Shown: positions 758 through 14,310 of the stretch, in pieces
Position numbering within the stretch: position 1 is the first letter of the stretch
Layout: the number at the start of each line of letters is the position of its first letter
Assembly (NCBI GenBank): GCA_046293015.1
Contig: JBKBPU010000005.1
Coordinates: 5,372-69,371 of the forward strand
Reading direction: 5' to 3'
DNA: 64,000 nucleotides
DNA from: Pseudobdellovibrio sp.
GTDB lineage: Bacteria; Bdellovibrionota; Bdellovibrionia; Bdellovibrionales; Bdellovibrionaceae
Position numbers and translations under genes: made by a program
The notes under the pieces: generated by a model
What the model saw: only the letters and a program-made list of their open reading frames with translations
Database searches by the model: none
Told to the model about the DNA's origin: nothing

Positions 758-2068
758 TTGACTCACGAATTTAAGTTGAACGTGATTGGTTGTGTTGTGA
801 ATAGACTTCAAAATTTATTCTTTTTTGGTTTATTTTTATTTTCTGCTTCGAGCGGAAGTGCTTTAGATTGGCAAAATTCAAAAAACTTTCTTCGTGAAAA
901 AAATTATGATTATTCGTATGCTGTTGATCAGTTAGAGCAAGCTCGGCTTACGGAAAAAGAAAATTTATCGTTATTTTTGCCACAAATTGATTACATCTTA
1001 AAACATGAACAATCTAATGATACACTTGATGTTTATGAACGCTATTATTCTTCAGGCCTTGTTTTAACTCAAAATTTATTTAATGGCGGAAAAGACTATT
1101 ATAGTTATAAATCAAATCAACAAAAACTTTCATTAGAGCAACTAAATTTTAAGTTAGCAAAAATCAAATTACAATCTGAACTAAAAAGGCTTGTGGCACA
1201 GCTTGAATATACACAAAAATCTGTAGCTTTAAGTGAATCGATTGTCGTTCGCCGTAAAGAGAATTTTGAAAGTGTTTCTTTGCGTTATGGAACAGGTTAT
1301 GAAGATAAGGCTGCTGTTATGTTATCAGAGGCTTATCTCGTTGATTCGAATCTTGATATTGATGTTTCTAAAGCAGATTATGATCAAGCAGATAAGGCAT
1401 TGAAGCAGTTTTTAGGAATTAATCAAGGTGAAAAATTGATATGGCAAGGCACTATACCACAAAAAAATATAACAGTTCTAGATGATTATACAAACATAAA
1501 ATTTGAAGAAATTCTTAAAAAATGCTCGACTGAACATCCACTAATTCTACAGGCGCAGCATGAGGAAAGAGTTAAATATTTCGATCATCAAGTTGAACAA
1601 TCTGGATTTTTTCCAATGCTGGATTTGACTGCTAAGTACACTGATTACGACAGCCAGCCACAATTGCAGCAAAGTAAATGGCTAGTCGGTTTGACATTGA
1701 CGATACCTTTGTTTAGTGGGTTTTCTACTGTAACTAAAAACAAGTCAGCAGAGCTCAGTTATCAACAGGCTTTGAAGAAAACGCTTAATCAAACTTCTTT
1801 TGTTGTTAATCAAATTCATAAATCATTTGCAAACTTGAAGTTAGCTAAAACACGTGTGTTTGTTGCTGAGAAATATTTAAAAGCTGCTAAATTAAGAGCT
1901 GAATATATGCATGAAAAATACAATTTGGGATTAGCATGGTTTGATCGATGGGACAGTGCTGAAACAAGTTTAATCGCTAGAGAAAAAGATTATTTACAGT
2001 CGCAAAGGGACTTAATCGTGGCTTTAGCAGATTTCGAAGAGGCTATTGCTTATGATGAAGAGGAGTAA
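758..2068 (+). CDS. tolC: TolC-family outer membrane efflux protein
   Basis: Two OEP-like repeats (FLPQIDY…LVLTQNLFNGG; FFPMLDL…LTLTIPLFSGF) directly upstream of a MacA/MacB pair. The true start may be GTG 797. Confidence 0.85.
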   Translation: MTHEFKLNVIGCVVNRLQNLFFFGLFLFSASSGSALDWQNSKNFLREKNYDYSYAVDQLEQARLTEKENLSLFLPQIDYILKHEQSNDTLDVYERYYSSGLVLTQNLFNGGKDYYSYKSNQQKLSLEQLNFKLAKIKLQSELKRLVAQLEYTQKSVALSESIVVRRKENFESVSLRYGTGYEDKAAVMLSEAYLVDSNLDIDVSKADYDQADKALKQFLGINQGEKLIWQGTIPQKNITVLDDYTNIKFEEILKKCSTEHPLILQAQHEERVKYFDHQVEQSGFFPMLDLTAKYTDYDSQPQLQQSKWLVGLTLTIPLFSGFSTVTKNKSAELSYQQALKKTLNQTSFVVNQIHKSFANLKLAKTRVFVAEKYLKAAKLRAEYMHEKYNLGLAWFDRWDSAETSLIAREKDYLQSQRDLIVALADFEEAIAYDEEE

Positions 2069-2069
2069 A

Positions 2070-3011
2070 ATGTTAAACAAAGTGCAAAAAAAATATATTC
2101 TCGTTGGGGTTTTAACTTTGATTACAATTATAAGTGGCTTTACTTTCATCAATAAAGTGACTCATCCCAAATTCAAGCAAGCTGCAATTGAAAAAGGTAA
2201 TTTAGAAGTATCTATTTTGGCTACTGGTACTGTATTACCTGAAAATCGTTTAGAAATTAAACCTCCCGTTGCTGGACGTATTGAGGAAGTTCTTGTAGTT
2301 GAAGGGCAAACTGTAGTTAAAGGTCAAGTTTTAGCTTTAATGAGTTCCACTGAACGAGCGGCGTTGTTGGATTCAGCAAGATCGCGCGGTCCTGAAGAAG
2401 TCAAAAAGTGGGAAGACGTAATAAAGCAAACACCGATTATTGCGCCAATCACGGGTACGATCATTTATAAAAATATTGAAAATGGTCAAACATTTACAGA
2501 ATCTGATCCTGTTTTGGTTATGTCTAATCGTTTAAGTATCAAAGTTCAGGTTGATGAAACTGATTTGGCAAAAATTAATCTCAATCAAAAGTGTTTAATA
2601 ATTTTGGATAGTTATCCTGATCAAGTTATTTCGGCACGTGTGGGGCACATTGCTTTTGAAGCTAAGACCGTTAATAATGTTACAACATACACAATTACAG
2701 TTAATCCAGAGTCGATACCTAAATTTATGAGAAGTGGTATGACGGCTAACGTAAAATTTAAAATTGATTCAAAAAAAGATATTTTACTTATTCCGACTGA
2801 ATTTGTGAAGTATGATCAAGGTAAAACGCGCGTTTTGTTGAGAACTCTTGATCGTCATAAACCATTATGGAAAGAAATTAAATTGGGATCCAGCGATGGG
2901 AAAATGACTGAAGTTGTAACAGGGCTTTCTGAAAATGATATTGTGTTAGTTCCTATTGTTGAACAAAGTAAAGTAGCTAATTCGCCATTTGCAACGTTAG
3001 GTCAAAAATAA
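2070..3011 (+). CDS. macA: MacA-like periplasmic adaptor (membrane fusion protein)
   Basis: N-terminal TM anchor and lipoyl halves (IKPPVAGRIEEVLVVEGQTVVKGQ / IIAPITGTI), plus VQVDETD and LRSGMTANV-like motifs. AGGAG RBS precedes ATG 2070. Confidence 0.85.
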   Translation: MLNKVQKKYILVGVLTLITIISGFTFINKVTHPKFKQAAIEKGNLEVSILATGTVLPENRLEIKPPVAGRIEEVLVVEGQTVVKGQVLALMSSTERAALLDSARSRGPEEVKKWEDVIKQTPIIAPITGTIIYKNIENGQTFTESDPVLVMSNRLSIKVQVDETDLAKINLNQKCLIILDSYPDQVISARVGHIAFEAKTVNNVTTYTITVNPESIPKFMRSGMTANVKFKIDSKKDILLIPTEFVKYDQGKTRVLLRTLDRHKPLWKEIKLGSSDGKMTEVVTGLSENDIVLVPIVEQSKVANSPFATLGQK

Positions 3012-3014
3012 TCT

Positions 3015-4979
3015 ATGATCAAATTACAAAATATCAAAAAATCCTATAAAATTGAGGATCAGACCCTTGATATTTTGAAAGGTATTTCTCTCGAAATTAA
3101 ACAAGGTGAATACGTTGCAATTATGGGACCTTCAGGTTCAGGCAAGTCGACATTGATGAATATTCTAGGAATGCTTGATAACCCCAGTGAAGGTTTTTAT
3201 TTTCTTGATGATATTGATGTCTCAAAGTTAAGCGAGGACGATTTAGGTATAATTCGTCGTGATCAAATAGGTTTTATTTTTCAGCAGTTTCATCTGTTGC
3301 CGAGACTAACTGCTTTAGAAAATGTGACCCTACCTCTGCTTTATTCTAAAAAATTTAAAGGATCAGAGCGCGCAAAAGATCTTTTAAAAAATGTCGATTT
3401 AGATTCAAGAATGCATCATTTGCCCAAACAGTTATCAGGTGGACAACAGCAACGTGTAGCTATAGCTCGATCATTGATTAATCAACCTAAAATATTATTT
3501 GCTGACGAGCCGACTGGTAATTTGGATACCAAAAGTCAAGATGATATTATTGATATTTTGAATCAGTTAAACTCACAGGGTATGACTGTCATTATCGTAA
3601 CTCATGATGAGGAAGTCGCATTGCATGCACATCGTATTATTAAAATACGTGATGGTTTAATTCAGTCAGACGAACAAAATGTTCAAAATCAAAAGATCAT
3701 TGATAATCGAAAACTAAATGTTAAATCTCTGTTTAAAATTGATAAGTTGAAATGGTCTGATTTTGAAGAGTACTTTAGGCAAGGATTTAAAACACTCGCA
3801 GGAAACAAAATAAGAACATTGCTTTCAATGCTAGGTATTATGATCGGTGTGGCCTCTGTAGTAGCTATGCTTGCTCTCGGTCAGGGAGCAAAACAAGCTA
3901 TAGAAGATCAAATGGCATCGATGGGATCAAACTTATTAATGATCCGACCTGGTTTGGTTCGAGTCGGTGGGGTGGCACAAGAATCAGCGGCTACGAACCG
4001 ATTGTCGGTTGAAGATATCAAAGCTGTGAAAAATCATCTTTCGCATGTGACAATGGTCTCTGGTCAAGTCAGTGGCAGAACTCAAATTACATCTACTTCA
4101 GGTAAAAACTGGAACACAACAACACAAGGCAGTTCTGATGACTGGGTTGTGATACATAATTCTTCACCAGTTTTGGGACGATTCTTTACTGAAGAAGAAA
4201 ACCAACAGCGATCGCGAGTTGCTGTGATCGGTGAAACTGTTCGAAAGCAACTTTTTGGATCCGATATTAATCCTATTGGTGAATTGATTAAAATTAATAA
4301 AGTCATTTTTCAGGTTATTGGTGTTCTTCCGGAAAAAGGTGCAAATAGCTTTCGTGATCAAGATGATATTGTTATTATTCCGCTAGAAACTGCAATGTTT
4401 AGATTATTTGGACATAACTCTCTTGACTTACTTGAAGTGCAAGTCGATCGACCTGATAAAATTGAACAGACGCAAATCGATGTTCTTGAATTGCTATACA
4501 ATCAACATAAAATACCATATTCAGCTCAAGGTGAAGCTTTCCAGATTAGTAATATGGCTGAAATGCAAAAAACAATTGAACAAAACAATCGAACAATGTC
4601 TTTATTGTTATCCACAATTGCTGCTATTTCGCTACTGGTTGGTGGTATTGGGATCATGAATATTATGTTAGTATCTGTAACAGAACGTACCAAGGAAATC
4701 GGTTTACGCAAATCGATTGGTGCGCGAAGAATCGATATTTTAGCACAATTCTTGTCAGAATCAGTCGTGGTCAGTGTCATCGGAGGTTTTTTCGGAGTTG
4801 TTTTAGGATGGTTGATAACCTTAATTTTATCTTACGGTTTAGGTTGGAGCACGAGTTTATCTTTGGGATCAATTATGATATCTTCGTCATTCTCAGCGTT
4901 AATCGGAATTGTTTTTGGTGTTTTTCCAGCTCATAAGGCTTCATTATTAAACCCAATCGATGCTTTAAGGCACGATTAG
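3015..4979 (+). CDS. macB: MacB-type ABC transporter (fused ATPase + permease)
   Basis: Walker A GPSGSGKS, signature LSGGQQQR, Walker B LFADEPTG, and C-terminal GGIGIMNIMLVSVTERTKEIG…A(S)LLNPIDALR. Confidence 0.95.
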   Translation: MIKLQNIKKSYKIEDQTLDILKGISLEIKQGEYVAIMGPSGSGKSTLMNILGMLDNPSEGFYFLDDIDVSKLSEDDLGIIRRDQIGFIFQQFHLLPRLTALENVTLPLLYSKKFKGSERAKDLLKNVDLDSRMHHLPKQLSGGQQQRVAIARSLINQPKILFADEPTGNLDTKSQDDIIDILNQLNSQGMTVIIVTHDEEVALHAHRIIKIRDGLIQSDEQNVQNQKIIDNRKLNVKSLFKIDKLKWSDFEEYFRQGFKTLAGNKIRTLLSMLGIMIGVASVVAMLALGQGAKQAIEDQMASMGSNLLMIRPGLVRVGGVAQESAATNRLSVEDIKAVKNHLSHVTMVSGQVSGRTQITSTSGKNWNTTTQGSSDDWVVIHNSSPVLGRFFTEEENQQRSRVAVIGETVRKQLFGSDINPIGELIKINKVIFQVIGVLPEKGANSFRDQDDIVIIPLETAMFRLFGHNSLDLLEVQVDRPDKIEQTQIDVLELLYNQHKIPYSAQGEAFQISNMAEMQKTIEQNNRTMSLLLSTIAAISLLVGGIGIMNIMLVSVTERTKEIGLRKSIGARRIDILAQFLSESVVVSVIGGFFGVVLGWLITLILSYGLGWSTSLSLGSIMISSSFSALIGIVFGVFPAHKASLLNPIDALRHD

Positions 4980-5113
4980 GATAAGTTGATCAAATGTTTT
5001 TAAACTCATAATTTTCAGTATGACTCATTATGAGATAATTTAAATCGGTTTTAATCAATGAATGACTGCAGAGAATGATCTCATAATCCGATAGGATATT
5101 GGTAGGGGAACTC

Positions 5114-7975
5114 ATGTCTTTAGAAAAGCGAATTATTTCGATGGCTATGATTTTTTTCATGATCAATAGTCAGTTAGGTTTAGTTTTAGCTTCTGACGCA
5201 ATTCGTTCGAGTAATGGCCAATATGCAAATGACAGTGATCAGTCTTCAGGAATTATACTGCAAAAAGAACCATGCCCACAAAACTTAAAAAAGTGGGTTA
5301 GTCAAGATTTGGAAAATATTGATGACCTTGTAGCAAATGCAAATGAACATCAAGATACAGCTTGTCGAGCTAAACTTGAAAACTTATCAAAAGAGTCAAA
5401 AATCAATCATGATAAGCAAAAAAATACTTCAAGTGGGAAAAAAAATAATAATAATTTCTTTGATTCAGTGAACGTAGATTATTCAAAATCATTGAGTTTA
5501 CAAAACAAAACAGTCATAACTAATTTTGATCAAACACTCAAAGGTTGTTCAAGTCTATCGCCAGAAAAAGAACAATTAGCATTGACGCGGTTTTATAGTG
5601 CTTCTAAAAAATTAACTTATGTCAACGAACAACTTCTGAACGAAGTTGCTTTCTATGATTCATATTTACCGCCTGGTTCGCCACTCGGTTCTATTGAATG
5701 TCCAGTTTTTCAACCGAGTATTCAAAAAAAGTGTGATTCGATAAGACGAGAAAATGAGGTTTGTAAATCTACACAGCAATCTCGTTTTGAAAAGCTGGTC
5801 GCGCGTACACAAGCAAATATCAGTAAAATATCAGAATTGAAGAAAGCTTATAAACAATGTTACTTTAGTAAAATAAACTCTCCGATGGCTAAAGAGGCTA
5901 ACGGTCGTACATTAAAGCCTGGTGTAATTGATAGTATTGAACAAGATTGTGGACGGATTAATGCTGCTATTACAATATTAGAAGCACAAACACCTTGGAT
6001 TAAAGGAAAAAAATTTCAAGACATAGCTTTAAGTCGAAAAGCTAATCCAAGAGTAAATGAAGATGAGATTTATAAAACAGATAAAAAAATATTAAATGAT
6101 GCTATTTATGAGCAACTGAACGCTGATCGCCAGGCACTTCGAGATACGTACGATAAAAACTTACAACATATCAGATGTTTGACTTATAATTCTCAAGATT
6201 CGGGGCAAGATTGTGATATAGGTGAAATTCGTCGTGATATAAATGCTTATGGTGATTTTAAACCATTTAATTATCAATCTAAAGAAACAGTATCGCCAAA
6301 ATCTACACAGTTTTCAGTAGAACAAACTGATCAATGCTTAATGAGTTATGGTCAAAAAGTACAAGATGCTCACGATAAAAAAATGGGGGCTTTGAAAACG
6401 GCGGGTGAAGTTTCATTGATGGCTGTAACATTTATTGCAACTGATGGGTTAGCTGCTGTCGCGTGGTTAAGTCGAGCTCGTAAAGTCGGACAAATGGCCG
6501 AAGTCGGTGGCGAAGTTGTGCAAGCTGGAAGATTAGGGTCGGCCATGCAAAAATCATCTAAAATTATGCAGGCAACCAACATAACTGAGGTGGTACAAGG
6601 AATTAATACAATTGAATCAATGTATGGATTAAGTAAAATAGCAGAATCTTGTCATAAAGATAATCCCTATAATCGAAGTCAGCTTACACAATCAAATGTC
6701 GATAGTAAAAAACTTTGTCAAGATCCAGAACATGAAAGTGCTCTCAATCAAGAACAAGCAATGGATTACGAAACAGATTGCGCTGTTGGTGCGCTATTGG
6801 GTGGATTAATGCAGATGCCTTTTATGGCTGGCGCTAAATACATGCAAAAACTAAAAAATATGAAAAATATGAGTGATGATGAACTTAAAGCTTTACTCAA
6901 AAGAGGGGATCGCGCTGAACTCGAAAAAGTATTAGCACAAAACAGTGCGTTAACTCCAGAACAACGTAAGGATGTTGCTCAGGTTTTAGTTAAAAGAAAC
7001 TTATCGACGACTGAAAAAGATTGTATCATGAAGGCACACAACGTCGGTGTTGGTAAAGTTATGAAAATTACGGGTACCGAAAGTAATACTTATGAATCTG
7101 GCGATTTATTTCAGAAAAAAAGTATCCTGAGTAAATGTGGATTTAGTAGTGATGAGGTAACCATTTTAATGCGTTCTGGTGTTACTGGGGCACGTGAGGA
7201 ACTAGCTCAGCTTGCTGCGAACACTGCAGGTAAAAAATTCGGTCGTGAAATTTCGCAAAATGATGGACGTGTTTTAACTGAAAATACATCCGCTTTATTA
7301 AGCGCTGATGTTAAAGCATCAGCTAAAGCGCGCGAGAATTTAAAAGCGGCTGGATATACAGATGCTGAAATTGATTATATAGCAAATAGTGGTGGTAAAT
7401 GGGATAAGCCATTTGACCCTAGGGCATCAAACACAAATACAGCGCAATTAGCTGCTCAAAGAGCTTCTGCAGAGAGAGCTGTAGCTGAAAGGCTTGCAGC
7501 TCAAAAGGCTGCTGAAGCAGCTGCAGCAGCAGAGGTCGCAAAAAAAGAAGCTGCTCGTAAAGCCTCTGAGCTGCAAGCTTCTCAAAATCCATTTTTACAA
7601 AAGCCAAATACTAGACTTGTTGAAAAAGAAGATTTAATTTTTCGAGTTGGGCAGGGGTCTGCTAAACCGTCGCCGACTGATGCAAAAATGTATCTTAATA
7701 CACAAGGTGCAAAATATGGATATCGAGGTCAAGAAGGCTTGTTTCATACTGTAAATAAAATTACTGATGACACTATAGGCGCAATTAAAAATGCTCAAAG
7801 TGCATTGTCAAGCGGTCGCATAACAGATTCACGTAGTATTGCAGCCATTAAAAATGAATTAGAGGCTTTAAAAGTTAAGTGTCGAGGTTTAGCAAGTGTT
7901 GCTGCACAAGCAGGTTTAAATGGTGCTAGCTATCAATCAAACTTGCAAAATCGAATCAATACAAATTGTAACTAA
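5114..7975 (+). CDS. Large secreted Cys-rich hypothetical protein, toxin/effector-like architecture
   Basis: Long ORF with GGGGA RBS before ATG 5114, a signal peptide, many Cys, a central hydrophobic segment, two helical repeats and an Ala-rich linker. Confidence 0.8.
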   Translation: MSLEKRIISMAMIFFMINSQLGLVLASDAIRSSNGQYANDSDQSSGIILQKEPCPQNLKKWVSQDLENIDDLVANANEHQDTACRAKLENLSKESKINHDKQKNTSSGKKNNNNFFDSVNVDYSKSLSLQNKTVITNFDQTLKGCSSLSPEKEQLALTRFYSASKKLTYVNEQLLNEVAFYDSYLPPGSPLGSIECPVFQPSIQKKCDSIRRENEVCKSTQQSRFEKLVARTQANISKISELKKAYKQCYFSKINSPMAKEANGRTLKPGVIDSIEQDCGRINAAITILEAQTPWIKGKKFQDIALSRKANPRVNEDEIYKTDKKILNDAIYEQLNADRQALRDTYDKNLQHIRCLTYNSQDSGQDCDIGEIRRDINAYGDFKPFNYQSKETVSPKSTQFSVEQTDQCLMSYGQKVQDAHDKKMGALKTAGEVSLMAVTFIATDGLAAVAWLSRARKVGQMAEVGGEVVQAGRLGSAMQKSSKIMQATNITEVVQGINTIESMYGLSKIAESCHKDNPYNRSQLTQSNVDSKKLCQDPEHESALNQEQAMDYETDCAVGALLGGLMQMPFMAGAKYMQKLKNMKNMSDDELKALLKRGDRAELEKVLAQNSALTPEQRKDVAQVLVKRNLSTTEKDCIMKAHNVGVGKVMKITGTESNTYESGDLFQKKSILSKCGFSSDEVTILMRSGVTGAREELAQLAANTAGKKFGREISQNDGRVLTENTSALLSADVKASAKARENLKAAGYTDAEIDYIANSGGKWDKPFDPRASNTNTAQLAAQRASAERAVAERLAAQKAAEAAAAAEVAKKEAARKASELQASQNPFLQKPNTRLVEKEDLIFRVGQGSAKPSPTDAKMYLNTQGAKYGYRGQEGLFHTVNKITDDTIGAIKNAQSALSSGRITDSRSIAAIKNELEALKVKCRGLASVAAQAGLNGASYQSNLQNRINTNCN

Positions 7976-8838
7976 TCCAAATACTCTTCATTAGAGTACT
8001 TTAAATGAATTTTAGGCTCGATACTTTCGTGATATTTTTCACGAACAAGAATGCGTATTTTTTCTTTGAGCAAATCTAAATTACTAGCTTCAGTTTTTAC
8101 ATGTTCTGATTGAGCTTCAGCAACACAAGAACCATTTGGGAATATTTTAACTTGAAAACTAATAGTGTTTGCAACAGGGTGATCAGCCCAATTGTATATG
8201 AAACGCCAATGTGAAATAGCTCCCGCTATGACTAAAAAATGGAAAACTTCATGTGCACCTAAAACAAGAGGTATAATAATAGGCCATTTCAAATAATCCA
8301 ATACGGCACCAATTGAATAATATAAACCACCAGAAGCTAGTAATCGCAAGCTTTCGCCATGAAATGATTTTCGAAATTTATAGCCAGTCAGAGCTCCAAT
8401 CCAACCCAATCCTAAGAATAAAGTTAAAACAAGCCATTCTGGAAATGATGTAAAAAATATGACTTGTAAAGTTAATCCAGTTATTGCGATTAACCAGACA
8501 ATTAGTAAAATCAACCAACGCCAGGGACCACGAAATAAAATGACATGAATCGGGGTGAATGTGCCAGCAATCAAGACCCAAATGGCAGCATGATCAAGTC
8601 GTTGTAAGATAGGCCTTGCTTGGCCGTCGTAAGCTAAAAGGTGATAAACGCCACTCATTGAAAATAGAAAAACTAAAGAAAATGTGTAAATCGCAAGTGC
8701 AATGATACGCGAAGGGCTTCCTTTAGCTTTTTTAAATAGTGGGTAACTTAGCATTAAAAATACAACTGCTCCAATCAGATGTGACCAGCTACTAATCGGA
8801 TCACAAAAACCTAATATGATCGTATTTCTTGTTTCCAA
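7972..8838 (-). CDS. Hemolysin III / PAQR-family membrane protein with a C-terminal soluble extension
   Basis: Multiple TM helices with SGVYH, RLDHAAIWVLIAGTFTP and HEVFH motifs, followed by a ~65-aa soluble tail. Confidence 0.9.
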   Translation of the reverse strand: METRNTIILGFCDPISSWSHLIGAVVFLMLSYPLFKKAKGSPSRIIALAIYTFSLVFLFSMSGVYHLLAYDGQARPILQRLDHAAIWVLIAGTFTPIHVILFRGPWRWLILLIVWLIAITGLTLQVIFFTSFPEWLVLTLFLGLGWIGALTGYKFRKSFHGESLRLLASGGLYYSIGAVLDYLKWPIIIPLVLGAHEVFHFLVIAGAISHWRFIYNWADHPVANTISFQVKIFPNGSCVAEAQSEHVKTEASNLDLLKEKIRILVREKYHESIEPKIHLKYSNEEYLD

Positions 8839-9016: not shown

Positions 9017-9970
9017 ATGAAAAATAAAAACAGTTTTAAGGCTCATTTGATTTTAAGTATCTCAGTCTTTTTTTTGCTTATTCAAAGCTATGCCTCGACA
9101 GTCGAAAAAGTAGCTTCCGGTAAAAATGGTTTGCCAGATCGCGTACAACTTCAGCTTGATCAACCTGTTCAAGTCGGGCAAAAAATTTACCTTGTAAATG
9201 CTGATCAAAAAAAAGTTGCAATTATCGAGATTCAGAAAGTTAGTTCTGATCAACGAAAAGCTTTAGCTCAAGTATTAAAGGGTAAGGCTTCAGTTGGGTT
9301 AAGTCTACTCGTTCCAAGTGCGGCAACAAATGCACGTGTTCAAAATACAAGTGTTAAAAATTCAGGATCTGCATCAAAAAGTATCAGTGATGCAACAGCT
9401 GAGAGCAAGTCAGTTTCTAAATCTAGCGGTAAAATTTACTATGGCGGTTTAGTTGGAGTGAGTATGAATACACTCAAAACCAAGATAGCGCAGTATAGTA
9501 ATTCAACTCCTGAAGCTGCGACATTGTCTGGAATGGGCTTCAATCTCAAAGCTCTGGTTGACTATAAGATATTGCCTGATTGGACAGTGACGGCAGTTTC
9601 TGGTTTAGATCAATTTGTAGCAAAAGGTAATATTACAAATTTTTATTGTAATAACGGTTCTTCGCAAAGTTGTACCGTCGATATTATGTATTTATCTGCT
9701 GAAGCCTTTGTTAAGTATAACTTGCTAGCTGATCAGGCATGGGTTGGTTTAGGTTATGGCCTGTTTTTACCACTCAGTTATTCGATGAATATTCCGAGCT
9801 TGTCTAAGCCGGGTTTGCAAAACACTGTATTTATTTCAACTGGATATAATTTGAAACTTTCCAATAAAATGATTTTTCCATTTAACCTCCACTATGGATT
9901 GGATCTTGTTGATCCAAGTGTTGAGACAAGTTCTATTCTTATTCAGACAGGTGTAGTTTTTCCATACTAA
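9017..9970 (+). CDS. Outer-membrane beta-barrel protein with an N-terminal domain and Ser/Lys-rich linker
   Basis: Signal peptide, low-complexity linker, alternating beta-strand pattern and aromatic C-terminus (GVVFPY). Confidence 0.65.
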   Translation: MKNKNSFKAHLILSISVFFLLIQSYASTVEKVASGKNGLPDRVQLQLDQPVQVGQKIYLVNADQKKVAIIEIQKVSSDQRKALAQVLKGKASVGLSLLVPSAATNARVQNTSVKNSGSASKSISDATAESKSVSKSSGKIYYGGLVGVSMNTLKTKIAQYSNSTPEAATLSGMGFNLKALVDYKILPDWTVTAVSGLDQFVAKGNITNFYCNNGSSQSCTVDIMYLSAEAFVKYNLLADQAWVGLGYGLFLPLSYSMNIPSLSKPGLQNTVFISTGYNLKLSNKMIFPFNLHYGLDLVDPSVETSSILIQTGVVFPY

Positions 9971-10044: not shown

Positions 10045-10941
10045 GTGAAAATTTCTGTTTCTATTTTTATTATATTATTTTTGGCGTTAGTATCTTGTAC
10101 GAAGTTTAATTTTCAGTCTGGATCAGACATTTTTAAATCAAAACAAAATTCTCATATTATGAACGGATCGGTTGTTACTCAGAATGTTGCGCCGTACAAC
10201 TCAGTCGTTGGTCTTTATGATTCTGAATTTGAATTTACGTGTACTGGAACTTTAATTGCTTCATCGACTATATTAACAGCCGCACATTGTATTGAGAATC
10301 AGGGGCAAGGTTTGTACGTCGTTTTCTCTAACCATTTGATTAACTCTGTTAAAAGTACAACTGAACTTAAAGACAATCCTTTCATTCGCAAAGTAACTGC
10401 AGCATTTGCTCATTATGATTATAAAAAAGACCATTCACCAGATGAAGAGTACGGTTGGAGCGATTTAGCTATTGTGCATTTTGAAGGGCAAATTCCTGAT
10501 CAGTATGTAGCGATTAAACTTGATAAATCTCAACCAAAAGTTAAAGAGATGGTCTTATTGTCTGGTTTTGGAGTTTCAGACGTTCAGATCGAAGGGTTTA
10601 ACGGATTACTTGTTCCAAATGTTGATCAACTTATCGAAGATGGTGATGCAATCTGTATGGATGAAAAAAAGACCACTTGCGCATTGGTTAAGATGTCAGG
10701 AGATGGACCTCTAAGAAGTACGTTTGCTCCTGTAGCTTCGATTGAAGGATTTGAGTTTGTTAATGATGAGACGAAAACAGGAACGTGTTCAGGTGATTCT
10801 GGTGGACCGGCTTTTCGTAAAACTGAAACCGGCTATGTTTTAACCGGCGTGACAAGTCGAGGATCACTTTCTTGTAACGAAGATGGTGTTTATACGCTTG
10901 TTTCTAAGTATTTGACTTGGATTAAGGGTAAACTCAAATAA
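10045..10941 (+). CDS. Trypsin-like (S1) serine protease, probable lipoprotein
   Basis: Catalytic triad motifs TAAHC, SDLAI and GDSGGP; lipobox-like LVSC. Confidence 0.92.
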   Translation: MKISVSIFIILFLALVSCTKFNFQSGSDIFKSKQNSHIMNGSVVTQNVAPYNSVVGLYDSEFEFTCTGTLIASSTILTAAHCIENQGQGLYVVFSNHLINSVKSTTELKDNPFIRKVTAAFAHYDYKKDHSPDEEYGWSDLAIVHFEGQIPDQYVAIKLDKSQPKVKEMVLLSGFGVSDVQIEGFNGLLVPNVDQLIEDGDAICMDEKKTTCALVKMSGDGPLRSTFAPVASIEGFEFVNDETKTGTCSGDSGGPAFRKTETGYVLTGVTSRGSLSCNEDGVYTLVSKYLTWIKGKLK

Positions 10942-11026: not shown

Positions 11027-12271
11027 GTGATTAAGTTAGTTCACATTTTTTTATTTATATGTGTTTTTTATTTGTTGGGTTGTGCTTCGTATTTAAAACA
11101 AGCAGATCAGACGAAGACTTATTTGCGTTCTCATCAATATGATTTGGCTATTAGTGATTTGAAAGAAAAGGCAGAAACTTCGGGTAAAGATCAATTAATG
11201 TATTTACTCGATTACGCAACTATTTTGCAAATTAAAGGTGAATACAAAAAATCTGCTCTAGCATTTCAAGCAGCAGATAAGCTCATTGATGAAAAAGATT
11301 ATCATTCAGTGTCACAGGTTGTTGGTTCTGCTTTAGGATCAGAGGAGATGATTCAGTATAAAGGTGAATCTTATGAGAAATTTTTAATTAATAGTCTTAA
11401 TGCAATTAATTATTTGATGCTTGGGGATTACGATAGTGCGCTTGTTGAGTGTCGTCGCATTAACAATAAAATTTCAGCCTTTCGAATGGAAGGGCGAGAT
11501 CCTTATGAACTTTCATCGTTCGCGCGTTATTTAGCTGCCATTATTTGGGAGGCAGATCGAAAGTACGATGATGCTTATATAGAGTATGAAGGTGCATATC
11601 AACTTGATCCAAAAATTCCATTTATTGCATCAGATTTGATTCGATCAGCATACTTAGCGCAAAGATTTGATTTAGTTAAGAAGTGGAAAAAAGAATTTGA
11701 TTATCGTCATGCTGATTCTGAAGTTAATCCTATGAAGGATAAGAACTTAGGTGAAATAGTTGTTATATTTCAAGAAGGATTCGGAGCTCGTAAAGTTCCT
11801 CGATATGATAGTCCACGTTTTCCGACACTGCGTCCAGAGTATAATGAATCATCAACTGCCCAAATTGAAATTATAGAAAATAATTCTGTTATTAAAACGC
11901 AAGTTATTTACGATATTGATTCGGTCGCTATGCGTAGTCTTGAAAAAGACTACGCAGCTTTAATTGCTAGACGGGTTGGTGGAATTGTAGCTAAAGCCGT
12001 TGTGTCAGATCAAATAAGACAAAAAAACAATTTACTAGGCGACTTAGCTTGGATTGCGATGAATGTTTCTGATCGTGCTGATCTAAGACAGTGGTCGACT
12101 TTGCCAGCAAAAATTCAAATTGCACGTATTTTTCTAAAGCCAGGAAAATATAAAATTAAAGTGAAATCTCTTAATTCGAGCGGTTTTGAAACTGGTGAGC
12201 CGATTTTAGATATGGATTTATTGATTAAATCAGGTCAAAAAGCATTTGTGAATTATCGATCATTACGTTAG
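11027..12271 (+). CDS. COG3014-like TPR lipoprotein
   Basis: Lipobox LLGC; Y(K)GESYEK…NYLMLGDYDSALVECRR and ADLRQWSTLPAKIQIAR motifs typical of this family. Confidence 0.75.
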   Translation: MIKLVHIFLFICVFYLLGCASYLKQADQTKTYLRSHQYDLAISDLKEKAETSGKDQLMYLLDYATILQIKGEYKKSALAFQAADKLIDEKDYHSVSQVVGSALGSEEMIQYKGESYEKFLINSLNAINYLMLGDYDSALVECRRINNKISAFRMEGRDPYELSSFARYLAAIIWEADRKYDDAYIEYEGAYQLDPKIPFIASDLIRSAYLAQRFDLVKKWKKEFDYRHADSEVNPMKDKNLGEIVVIFQEGFGARKVPRYDSPRFPTLRPEYNESSTAQIEIIENNSVIKTQVIYDIDSVAMRSLEKDYAALIARRVGGIVAKAVVSDQIRQKNNLLGDLAWIAMNVSDRADLRQWSTLPAKIQIARIFLKPGKYKIKVKSLNSSGFETGEPILDMDLLIKSGQKAFVNYRSLR

Positions 12272-12280
12272 CCTTTTATT

Positions 12281-13048
12281 ATGAAAAAGAATAAATTCAA
12301 ATTTTTCTCTCGTTTGTTTGCTATATTTATAAGTTTTTATTTAGTCAGTCAAGATGCGATCTCTAAAGTTCGACTGCCTATATTTGGTCTAAATGTCAAT
12401 GAACAACCTGAATGTCCTGATCGATTAGAGGCTCGTGAGTTAACGCAAATTCAACAAAGTTATAGTCCGAGTTTAAAGCGTTGTTATTTGTCGATCAGTC
12501 ATCGAAACAATTATCAAACTTTAATTTATCGAGATTATCTTATTTCAAATGAAGGTCATCTCATGGCTTTTTTGTCATTTGGTCCTGGACCAGATCAAAC
12601 TTCGACTGGTGCAAAAGAATTTTTCTTTTTCCCACGAAAAATTAAATCGCAGAGCTTTTATTGGGATGATTATGATTCAAAGCTAATTATTAAAGCTTCA
12701 ACACCTTTCGATTTTATCTTTAGAACTGAAACAAGTGAAATTGAAGAAATCAGTCAAGCTCAAGTCTTTATTGATCCAAAAATATCAAAAGAAAATGATG
12801 GTGGTATTAAAATATTACCACGTTCGGGTTTGGTTCTTGAGTTCCCTTTTCAGTTGGGTCGTGCACCGACTTCTATTCCATCGCTCAAGGGAAAATTTAT
12901 TGATGCAAACTCTAACACTTGTAGTTTGAGAGTTTCAGACCTATTTAAACGGCTCACTTCTGATGGTGATGTTGAATTTAAATTTGACGATGTTCAACTT
13001 ACTCGGTATTTAAAAACAAAATGCCCTCAGTTGAAATTTACGCTTTAA
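12281..13048 (+). CDS. Secreted hypothetical protein
   Basis: 255-aa ORF with a signal peptide and 4 Cys. Confidence 0.75.
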   Translation: MKKNKFKFFSRLFAIFISFYLVSQDAISKVRLPIFGLNVNEQPECPDRLEARELTQIQQSYSPSLKRCYLSISHRNNYQTLIYRDYLISNEGHLMAFLSFGPGPDQTSTGAKEFFFFPRKIKSQSFYWDDYDSKLIIKASTPFDFIFRTETSEIEEISQAQVFIDPKISKENDGGIKILPRSGLVLEFPFQLGRAPTSIPSLKGKFIDANSNTCSLRVSDLFKRLTSDGDVEFKFDDVQLTRYLKTKCPQLKFTL

Positions 13049-14310
13049 TAAGCTTTAAAAAAAGGAATACCTATTGAGATACCAGCCATCTCAATAGCGG
13101 ATTGCTCTTTGCCCCAGGTTATGTAATTAAGTTCATAAAAAATTCGATCTCCAAAGCGTAACCATATATTTCGATATGTTTCTCGAGTTGTTGATAAAAA
13201 CATACCATAACTTAAATATTTATTTTTTAAACCGAAGGCATTGTTGTAAGTAATTTCTAATCCTTGTGGAAAAATAACACCAAATTCCATGTCTGAGTGG
13301 CGATCATGGCGATAATGTAAACCTTGAAAGCCAATCAAGGCGCCAAAGATTAACTCGCCATCAAATAATTTAGCGATATCATATGAATAATAAAGGCCAG
13401 AGTTATTAAAAAAAGTGTCATAGGGTATGATGGCGTCAAAGGCTTTAAATGAAGAGTTTTCATTTAAATCGTATTTTCCATATAGCATGAGTGATGATTC
13501 AATTGTTGGGCCTAGTTTATTGTCTCCCTTTCGGCTTGTTAAACTATATGGCCCAAATCCTAGAGCTGTTTTTAAACGATAAAGTCGATCAGGCAAATCA
13601 GCTGAAATTGATACTGAATTTTTAGTATTACTTTTTTTGTGGATGAGAACAGTATTAACCGGTGAATTGTTATTTAAATTAAACAAATAGGGTGGTTCTT
13701 CGCCAGTTGGCGTTGCAAAGTTTGGTGAGCTTAAAGAAACTTCTAATCGAGGACGTTCATGCCCAAGTTGTCCAACACGATGTAACTTACAACCAACTGA
13801 AGAGTATTCATTTTCAAGGCCTGTTATTTTAACTTTATATGTTTGGCAAGAACCATCAATCCATTGTTTATCGGAATTTGAAATGGTTTTGGCGCTTATG
13901 CTCATTTTGTCTATTAGTATAGTATCTTGATAAATTTCTATTGGTTCTGGATGATAAAGATTAACATAAATTTCAGTAACAAAATAATCATTTTCTTCGG
14001 AAGGGAAAATGGTGTGATTTTGATATTTCAAATAAATTGGTTTATATTTTACTGGCACTTTAATTTGCAGTAAAATTCTTGGCGTTAATAAGTTGGTATC
14101 CGGTCTAATCCATTGCAATGAATCTTCAATAAAATGAACCGTGATATCTGCATGCTTTTTTATAACTTCAAAATCAGATAAATCAAGTTTTATTGAAGTT
14201 TTTCCAATTGAAAATTGACCAATAGAGACAGTTTGCGAATAACTTATTTGAGATAAGAAACTGAATAAAGTAAATAAAATAGGTAAATTTATTTTTTGCT
14301 GAAAATTCAT
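13045..14310 (-). CDS. Exported hypothetical protein, C-terminal half beta-barrel-like
   Basis: Signal peptide and aromatic/Gly-rich beta-strand pattern; last gene of the moxR operon. Confidence 0.7.
   Translation of the reverse strand: MNFQQKINLPILFTLFSFLSQISYSQTVSIGQFSIGKTSIKLDLSDFEVIKKHADITVHFIEDSLQWIRPDTNLLTPRILLQIKVPVKYKPIYLKYQNHTIFPSEENDYFVTEIYVNLYHPEPIEIYQDTILIDKMSISAKTISNSDKQWIDGSCQTYKVKITGLENEYSSVGCKLHRVGQLGHERPRLEVSLSSPNFATPTGEEPPYLFNLNNNSPVNTVLIHKKSNTKNSVSISADLPDRLYRLKTALGFGPYSLTSRKGDNKLGPTIESSLMLYGKYDLNENSSFKAFDAIIPYDTFFNNSGLYYSYDIAKLFDGELIFGALIGFQGLHYRHDRHSDMEFGVIFPQGLEITYNNAFGLKNKYLSYGMFLSTTRETYRNIWLRFGDRIFYELNYITWGKEQSAIEMAGISIGIPFFKAY

Follow-up and report, generated by a model that had tools for sequence, protein, structure and literature searches.

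Can a seven-helix membrane protein of the PAQR/HlyIII family carry a domain taken from a toxin-antitoxin system, and what would such a domain do there? A gene in a 64,000-nucleotide stretch of DNA from Pseudobdellovibrio sp. raises this question (GenBank assembly GCA_046293015.1, contig JBKBPU010000005.1, positions 5,372 to 69,371 of the forward strand; this whole stretch is "the window" below). To our knowledge, bacterial PAQR/TrhA proteins have no known regulator or partner, and they are regarded as membrane-only. The gene described here encodes a PAQR/HlyIII protein whose last transmembrane (TM) helix runs through a short linker into a folded C-terminal tail of HicB-like structure, and the same architecture recurs in several bacterial phyla. 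What is new is the combination: a known enzyme family and a known fold, joined in one conserved and undescribed protein.

A PAQR/HlyIII protein with a folded C-terminal tail

The gene is a single unbroken open reading frame (ORF) at 7972-8838 on the minus strand, with 288 codons plus stop (stop codon at 7972-7974, TTG start codon at 8836-8838). A Shine-Dalgarno-like GTGAGG lies upstream of the TTG start (8838), separated from it by a 5-nt spacer. The gene and the features of its membrane domain are as follows.

7972..8838, minus strand: whole gene, encoding a 288-residue PAQR/HlyIII protein with a HicB-like C-terminal domain (ORF list and translation)
8188..8838, minus strand: PAQR/HlyIII seven-TM domain, residues 1-217 (Pfam, NCBIfam, AlphaFold2 (AF2), Foldseek)
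Within the PAQR domain, minus strand: TM helices at residues 14-37, 42-67, 74-101, 105-127, 134-158, 165-183 and 195-217 (AF2 model)
8653-8655, 8641-8643 and 8593-8595, minus strand: zinc-motif partners S62 (TM2), H66 (TM2) and D82 (TM3), in that order (codons read from the sequence)
8239..8253, minus strand: H196-E-V-F-H200 in TM7, the PAQR zinc-ligand HxxxH (codons read from the sequence)

Residues 14-211 match the Pfam family PF03006 (HlyIII; E 1.4e-35, 123.5 bits with the cutoff at 26.2). Among NCBIfam models, the protein clears the cutoff of the TrhA/PAQR equivalog NF011669 (146.5 bits against 80) and stays below that of the TIGR01065 subfamily (152.7 against 172.2). An AF2 model of the full-length protein (125-sequence alignment) shows seven helices, with a mean predicted local distance difference test score (pLDDT) of 95.9 and a predicted template-modelling score (pTM) of 0.91. 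Foldseek superposes this model on human AdipoR1/2 (template-modelling score 0.62, E 2e-6); a full-length phmmer search of the PDB gave no match. S62, H66, D82, H196 and H200 are invariant among 125 fused homologues. Judged by these residues, the PAQR domain is complete, with every position of the catalytic motif present.

TM7 (residues 195-217) is followed by a linker and then by residues 225-288, TISFQVKIFPNGSCVAEAQSEHVKTEASNLDLLKEKIRILVREKYHESIEPKIHLKYSNEEYLD, which together with the stop codon occupy exactly 7972-8166. An earlier note on this DNA had quoted a peptide after the last TM helix and read it by eye as HicB-like; that peptide matches residues 225-288 save for one additional final D. 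The parts of the tail are as follows.

8167..8187, minus strand: linker, residues 218-224 (ADHPVAN); W217-A-x-H-P-x-x-N is conserved and specific to the fusion
7990..8166, minus strand: HicB-like domain (partial RNase H fold), residues 225-283 (AF2, Foldseek, profile, and the ratio of nonsynonymous to synonymous substitution rates, dN/dS or omega)
Within the tail, minus strand: beta1 225-232, beta2 238-242, beta3 248-251, alpha 254-268 and beta4 276-283 (AF2 models)
7975..7989, minus strand: C-terminal residues 284-288 (EEYLD), including the conserved pair E284-E285 (column conservation)

[quoted passage not shown] Tail pLDDT is 84.5 when the tail is modelled alone and 88-98 inside the full-length model. 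In Foldseek, the best PDB match of the tail model is 1wv8/TTHA1013 (probability 0.99, E 0.018, template-modelling score 0.55, 24% identity), and many of the lower matches are p51 chains of the human immunodeficiency virus reverse transcriptase. TTHA1013 is the reference structure for the partial RNase H fold of HicB (Gerdes preprint, PMC10865869). The protein ends five residues past beta4, with no C-terminal ribbon-helix-helix or helix-turn-helix DNA-binding domain.

Between the tail and that of its syntenic orthologue P0003, dN is 0.106 and dS about 1.5 (omega about 0.07); the corresponding values for the TM domain are a dN of 0.142 and a saturated dS. By these substitution rates, purifying selection on the tail is strong, and the constraint is no weaker than on the enzyme domain. 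GC content is uniform across the gene region at about 35%, and no GC anomaly surrounds the fused gene.

The fused architecture recurs in several phyla

A word-indexed search with the tail alone retrieved three further HlyIII proteins of about 290 residues, with tail identities of 96%, 84% and 60%. A profile built from 12 full-length fused proteins then matched at least 120 clusters (90% identity), each covering 96-100% of the query. The fused clusters are 283-325 residues long, all but one of them 313 or shorter, and they are annotated solely as "hemolysin III family", with PF03006 alone. A genome scan restricted to one genome per species returned 80 loci, and of 75 related genome loci about 55 have the tailed architecture. 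Most carriers belong to the Bdellovibrionota (Pseudobdellovibrionaceae/Bdellovibrionales, Halobacteriovoraceae, Bacteriovoracaceae and Oligoflexia), with others in the Gammaproteobacteria (Cellvibrionaceae, Marinagarivorans, Neptunicella, Alteromonas and Thiohalomonadales), the Campylobacterota (Sulfurimonas) and the Bacteroidota (Flavobacteriaceae and Saprospirales).

Conservation extends to the junction. W217 is conserved in 94% of fused proteins, P221 in 95%, H220 in 76% and N224 in 78%, and the W217-A-x-H-P-x-x-N motif was not found in the free-standing relatives of the tail described below. At the C-terminus, E284 and E285 are conserved in 93% and 97% of fused proteins, and E285 also in 87% of the free-standing relatives.

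With at least 120 clusters in several phyla and a tail omega of 0.07, the fusion is not the single-genome frameshift artefact that the earlier note had allowed for. The same note had called the fusion apparently undescribed, and this too holds: in full-text literature searches that paired HicB with hemolysin III or PAQR, no paper described it, and neither Pfam nor NCBIfam has a model of the architecture, both annotating the HlyIII part only.

A probable origin of the tail in a lineage of small HicB proteins

A 9-sequence tail profile, in an exhaustive hmmsearch of 1.84 billion representatives, matched 151 proteins at E<=1e-3. Most of these are free-standing proteins of 60-125 residues that align to profile positions 7-70, and a few are fused PAQRs or fragments. 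The free-standing family, of about 68 residues and with the consensus EIIFxVEEAPEGGYxARALGxSIFTEADxLxELxxxVRDAVxCHFDxxxxPKxIRLHFVRDEVI, comprises more than 7,800 clusters and carries no Pfam domain; the search thereby brings to light a mini-HicB family of that size without Pfam coverage. In the reverse direction, a profile of 29 free-standing members only yields one match in the source genome, the PAQR tail, aligned over positions 3-68 of 70 at E 1.3e-12 and 49 bits. In four of five other carrier genomes, too, the tail is the profile's single match, and among the 80 genome loci the profile picks up the tail in 53 of about 60 full-length fused proteins.

The genomic setting of the free-standing proteins ties them to toxin-antitoxin (TA) systems. 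Of five members looked up, three (P0197, P0176 and P0256) have a 4-bp overlap with a downstream 82-residue hicA (PF07927, confirmed at 4.4e-10), and the other two are orphans adjoining Phd/PIN pairs. Compared by HHalign with 26 PF15919 proteins extracted from Bdellovibrionota genomes as a canonical HicB set, the free-standing profile gives a probability of 83% and E 8.6e-6 over 51 columns, with beta1-beta2-beta3-alpha1 in register. The most recurrent sub-threshold Pfam matches of the tail's family are DUF1902 (6 of 84 members) and HicB_lk_antitox (3 of 84), and one free-standing member matches the NCBIfam RelN antitoxin model. PDB searches with 70- and 29-sequence profiles gave a marginal match to TTHA1756 (E 0.006). 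HicB proteins that lack a DNA-binding domain are known from small Class 1/2 hicAB/hicBA modules (Gerdes, bioRxiv 10.1101/2023.12.08.570793).

Together these results make it very probable that the tail originated in the HicB lineage. The link is transitive, through the free-standing family, and structural, because the direct comparison of fused tails with canonical HicB is not significant.

Three side observations concern this family. Its free-standing members (P0154-P0272) are named either "hypothetical" or "2-oxoisovalerate dehydrogenase", the latter used in several NCBI records and an evident misnomer for a 68-residue protein. On contigs named Nitrosomonas, Polaromonas and Nitrosospira, a mini-HicB (68-71 residues) and an 82-residue hicA with a 4-bp overlap lie between cas7 and cas4 of type I-C cas operons (L013:2501-2961, L020:1501-1961 and L025:1501-1952), and the arrangement resembles the insertion of a TA module into a CRISPR-Cas operon. 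Finally, a metagenomic protein of 150 residues (P0041) has DUF433 (PF04255, 6.5e-22) N-terminal to the HicB-like domain, and is perhaps a HicB variant in which DUF433 takes the DNA-binding role.

Gain and loss of the tail

We built a maximum-likelihood tree from the TM domains alone of 75 sequences. Tailed proteins and their close tail-less relatives form one clade (56 tailed and 17 tail-less members), and a long branch (Shimodaira-Hasegawa-like approximate likelihood-ratio test support 98) lies between it and the ordinary HlyIII of the source genus. The most parsimonious history of the tail on this tree has seven changes, and the tree requires at least three. Tail-less members include a Planctomycetota/Thiohalophilus group of 11 and Chitinophagaceae. 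Two Neptunicella sisters (support 97) differ in the tail, L081 being tailed (287 residues) and L092 tail-less (224 residues), and the locus L093 (3001-3648) retains a remnant of the tail, the first strand only and then a stop: …HRLTFIVRKEAQINF…. As read from the tree, the tail has an ancient origin, persists in most members and disappeared several times. Given these losses among close relatives, it would be accessory to the PAQR core, not essential to it. Such natural pairs of tailed and tail-less sisters can serve for comparison.

The fused gene is the sole PAQR homologue of the source genome, which is 99.9% complete. Among 36 sampled genomes of the same genus, the best match in 32 is a plain HlyIII of about 215 residues with 27-38% identity; four have no PAQR match, and the fused form is found in none. 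Because the source genome has no other PAQR and most of its congeners carry the plain version of about 215 residues, the fused protein probably supplies the housekeeping PAQR function of this organism. Within a Bdellovibrionales cluster of the tree, the source protein falls together with Cellvibrionaceae sequences (support 87). This grouping, combined with the absence of the fused form from the 36 congeners, indicates that the fused gene was acquired by horizontal transfer, and suggests that it replaced the plain HlyIII in the source genome.

A proposed role for the tail

We propose that an ancestral PAQR gained its C-terminal domain, directly after TM7, from a small HicB lineage devoid of a DNA-binding domain. 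The product would be a functional PAQR/HlyIII membrane protein of the TrhA type with a zinc site, and the tail would lie in the cytoplasm, docked under the TM bundle opposite that site. There, as an accessory module, it would lend the PAQR stability, regulate it or bring in a cytosolic partner, and it would be dispensable for core PAQR activity. We hold this reading as a whole, in which an exapted domain of HicB type works in one of these ways from the cytoplasmic side, with moderate confidence. Which specific role the tail plays, as stabiliser, regulator or recruiter, can be said only tentatively, its function being something we infer. Bacterial PAQR/TrhA proteins have been tied to membrane-potential homeostasis (PMC9017321), and a conserved soluble C-terminal domain offers a handle on the interaction partners of PAQRs.

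Another fusion of the same domain makes a different role conceivable. In P0120, a metagenomic protein of 259 residues, the HicB-like domain is N-terminal to a PycTM-type two-TM (2TM) effector of the kind found in cyclic-oligonucleotide-based antiphage signalling systems (CBASS; PF18967 4e-08, PADLOC PycTM 7.5e-12). By analogy with this independently arisen fusion to a defence effector, the tail could sense a cytosolic protein or RNA and switch on a membrane-perturbing PAQR, making the gene a one-protein stress or abortive-infection device. The effect of HlyIII proteins on membrane energetics (PMC9017321) and the presence of free-standing relatives inside type I-C cas operons fit this idea.

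The surroundings of the fused gene speak against such a device. The gene is monocistronic, and its neighbours are lineage-specific and unrelated: a trypsin-like protease and a MacB transporter in the source genome and in that of P0003; a cardiolipin-synthase-like phospholipase D, MarR and cytochrome P460 in a second lineage; and YceG, thymidylate kinase and LysR in a third. No neighbour or operon partner is conserved across the inspected fused loci, and those present are of housekeeping type and do not form defence islands. PADLOC has no match for the fused protein, which as the sole PAQR of its genome suggests a housekeeping role. We therefore judge a defence switch of this kind to be unlikely. 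In its specific form, the idea makes the protein the single-chain descendant of a TA pair, with the HicB-derived tail sensing in the cytoplasm and gating a membrane-active PAQR; this has a small but real chance of being right. If it were, predatory and marine bacteria would hold an unrecognised class of regulated membrane effector, in which an "antitoxin" domain controls a membrane hydrolase or permeabiliser, in parallel to the fusion of the HicB-like domain with PycTM.

An apparent loss of antitoxin function

If the tail still served as an antitoxin, a HicA partner might be expected. The earlier note had suggested looking for orphan hicA genes, and none came to light here: no match to PF07927 is present in the source genome even at E<=1, in a search that was positive in 12 of the 14 genomes used as controls. 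Of five other carrier genomes, four are likewise without hicA; the fifth (G040) has one copy, on a different contig from the fused gene. At no inspected locus does a hicA adjoin the fused gene.

We compared alignment columns between 125 fused tails and 72 free-standing proteins. Both sets share a hydrophobic core of F228, V230, P234, A240, A242, A251, L257, V265, P275, I277, L279 and E285. Conserved in the free-standing proteins only are E225, E231, G236, G237, I247, T249, R262, D263, A264 and C267, and the fused tails have a conserved set of their own, with W217, A218, H220, P221, N224, S253, K258, H270 (91%) and E284. The four helix alpha1 residues R262, D263, A264 and C267 are conserved at 72-88% in the free-standing proteins, and each at no more than 37% in the fused tails. 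In solved complexes, helix alpha1 of HicB packs against HicA (PMC10865869); by analogy with the description of E. coli HicAB in the same source, these four residues would be the ones that contact HicA. Judged by column conservation, this is the pattern expected for an exapted domain, with the fold kept and the surface changed. Because the antitoxin-specific surface is lost while the fold core is kept, and because no HicA is present, the tail appears to be an antitoxin no longer, and the fused PAQR would not be a TA module.

These comparisons also bear on the idea that the tail is a membrane-tethered antitoxin or decoy. The PAQR would then be an anchor, and the tail would neutralise a HicA-type RNase with the fold of a double-stranded RNA-binding domain, encoded elsewhere in a form that PF07927 misses or arriving from a phage, a plasmid or a prey cell. 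The closest relatives of the tail are indeed hicA-linked mini-HicBs, the fold core is fully retained, and the carrier G040 does hold a hicA on another contig. It is nonetheless improbable that the tail works in this way: hicA is missing from the source genome and from four of the five other carriers, no toxin-like gene lies beside the fusion at the inspected loci, and the positions conserved in free-standing proteins, the exposed HicA-contacting face of the helix among them, are unconserved in the fused tails. Moreover, a mere anchor would not need the PAQR catalytic residues, which are invariant.

Predicted topology and docking of the tail

The distribution of charge in the membrane domain predicts on which side the tail lies. 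Averaged over 125 sequences, loops 1, 3 and 5 carry 8.9 lysine and arginine residues, and the N-terminus with loops 2, 4 and 6 carries 3.6; aspartate and glutamate average about 1 and 4.8, respectively. By the positive-inside rule, the sole basis for this assignment, the protein is predicted to be N-out/C-in, so that the tail would be cytoplasmic and the zinc site would face the periplasmic leaflet. A cytoplasmic location fits the relatives of the domain, all of which are without signal peptides and among which P0120 has an N-terminal copy. Should the topology read from the charges hold, these bacterial PAQRs have the reverse orientation of AdipoR, and a zinc site at the periplasmic leaflet would bear on the lipid that is acted upon.

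The AF2 model adds a suggestion about how the tail is held. The pLDDT of the linker is about 95-97 in the full-length model and about 60 in the tail-only model, and with a pTM of 0.91 this suggests that the tail is rigidly docked beneath TM7 and the TM bundle. Whatever the absolute orientation, the tail should lie on the face opposite the zinc site, because it follows TM7, whose start holds the HxxxH; that it plugs the catalytic cavity directly is accordingly improbable.

The reverse orientation (N-in/C-out) would put the tail in the periplasm, where it could, for example, bind envelope or prey components in predatory bacteria. The solved AdipoR1/2, on which our model superposes, have an extracellular C-terminus (PMC3146951), and most carriers are predatory Bdellovibrionota. 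Set against this are the excess of lysine and arginine on the tail side (8.9 against 3.6), the near absence of acidic residues from loops 1 and 3, and the cytoplasmic nature of the domain's known relatives, which have no signal peptides and include the N-terminal copy in P0120. The CREST superfamily, moreover, holds both orientations, with ACER2 and Per1 having cytosolic C-termini (PMC3146951). A periplasmic tail consequently strikes us as doubtful.

Points against an exapted cytoplasmic module

Several observations weigh against the reading of the tail as an exapted, HicB-derived cytoplasmic module. Scanned directly against Pfam and NCBIfam, the tail returned noise only (DUF1902, RNR_N and DUF5735, E 0.02-0.08). 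DUF1902 (PF08972), the family to which the earlier note had likened the tail by eye, scores 13.8 bits (E 0.066) against a cutoff of 22, comparable to the chance matches to RNR_N and DUF5735, so that membership in this Pfam family is not supported. A PDB sequence search with the 9-sequence tail profile gave no match, HHalign between the fused-tail profile and canonical HicB does not reach significance (E 0.16), and the Foldseek match to TTHA1013 is modest, as its E-value and score above indicate. An unrecognised or horizontally supplied HicA-like partner may exist. The topology is a prediction, and AdipoR, the solved PAQR, is oppositely oriented, with its C-terminus outside. Finally, loops 1, 3 and 5 show no tail-specific co-evolution signal, since the loop motifs KGRGN..R and LFRGxWRW are conserved in tail-less members of the clade as well.

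Some of these points would be explained if the likeness to HicB were convergent, the tail and its free-standing relatives forming a separate small alpha/beta family with a common beta-beta-beta-alpha-beta topology. No Pfam model of the HicB clan reaches its cutoff, the Foldseek template-modelling score is only 0.55, and the direct alignment of fused tails with HicB falls short of significance. We nevertheless find convergence hard to reconcile with the adjacency of the free-standing members to hicA, including the 4-bp overlap, with the 83% HHalign probability and its motif in register, and with TTHA1013 being the single best PDB match at a probability of 0.99; it seems quite improbable. That a frameshift or read-through in annotation or assembly joined a PAQR gene to an unrelated small downstream ORF has next to no probability, given that at least 120 clusters, and about 55 genome loci of several phyla, share the same continuous frame, that the tail omega is 0.07 and that the linker motif is conserved.

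Neighbouring genes in the window

The remaining genes near the fusion are noted for completeness. A 958-residue ORF at 5099-7975 (plus strand) is convergent with the PAQR gene and overlaps it by 4 nt; it has no Pfam or PADLOC match, and its syntenic counterpart in the genome of P0003 (L027) has 894 residues. On the other side, 9017-9970 (plus strand) and 11027-14310 hold ORFs of 317, 414, 255 and 421 residues without a Pfam family. This block adjoins the trypsin-like protease (10045-10941) and is syntenic in the P0003 genome (L027). Upstream, 758-4979 (plus strand) encodes an ordinary-looking tripartite efflux operon with OEP/TolC-like, HlyD-like and MacB-type ABC components (Pfam).

Comparison with known systems

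In its membrane part, the fused protein resembles bacterial PAQR/HlyIII proteins (TrhA/YqfA, PF03006) and AdipoR1/AdipoR2, with the same seven TM helices, the S/H of TM2, the D of TM3 and the HxxxH of TM7. It differs from the typical bacterial PAQR/HlyIII of about 215 residues in adding a folded C-terminal domain of 70 residues, and from the ordinary HlyIII of its own genus in belonging to a distinct clade with a long branch between them. Its charge bias predicts an orientation, N-out/C-in, opposite to that of AdipoR.

The tail, in turn, has the size (60-90 residues) and the beta-beta-beta-alpha-beta partial RNase H fold of small HicB proteins without a DNA-binding domain, such as TTHA1013 (1wv8). 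Its free-standing relatives match Class 1/2 hicBA modules, as mini-HicBs without a DNA-binding domain that overlap a downstream hicA. To DUF1902 and HicB_lk_antitox (PF15919) the relation is one of recurrent sub-threshold matches, no family member reaching either gathering threshold. Unlike small HicB antitoxins, the tail is covalently joined to a membrane protein, and no hicA accompanies it in the genome; the finding documents the exaptation of a TA domain into a housekeeping-type membrane protein. The nearest parallel is P0120, where the same mini-HicB domain is likewise joined to a membrane protein. There, however, the domain stands at the N-terminus and is joined to a PycTM/2TM effector of defence type in place of a PAQR hydrolase, which marks it as an independent fusion event.

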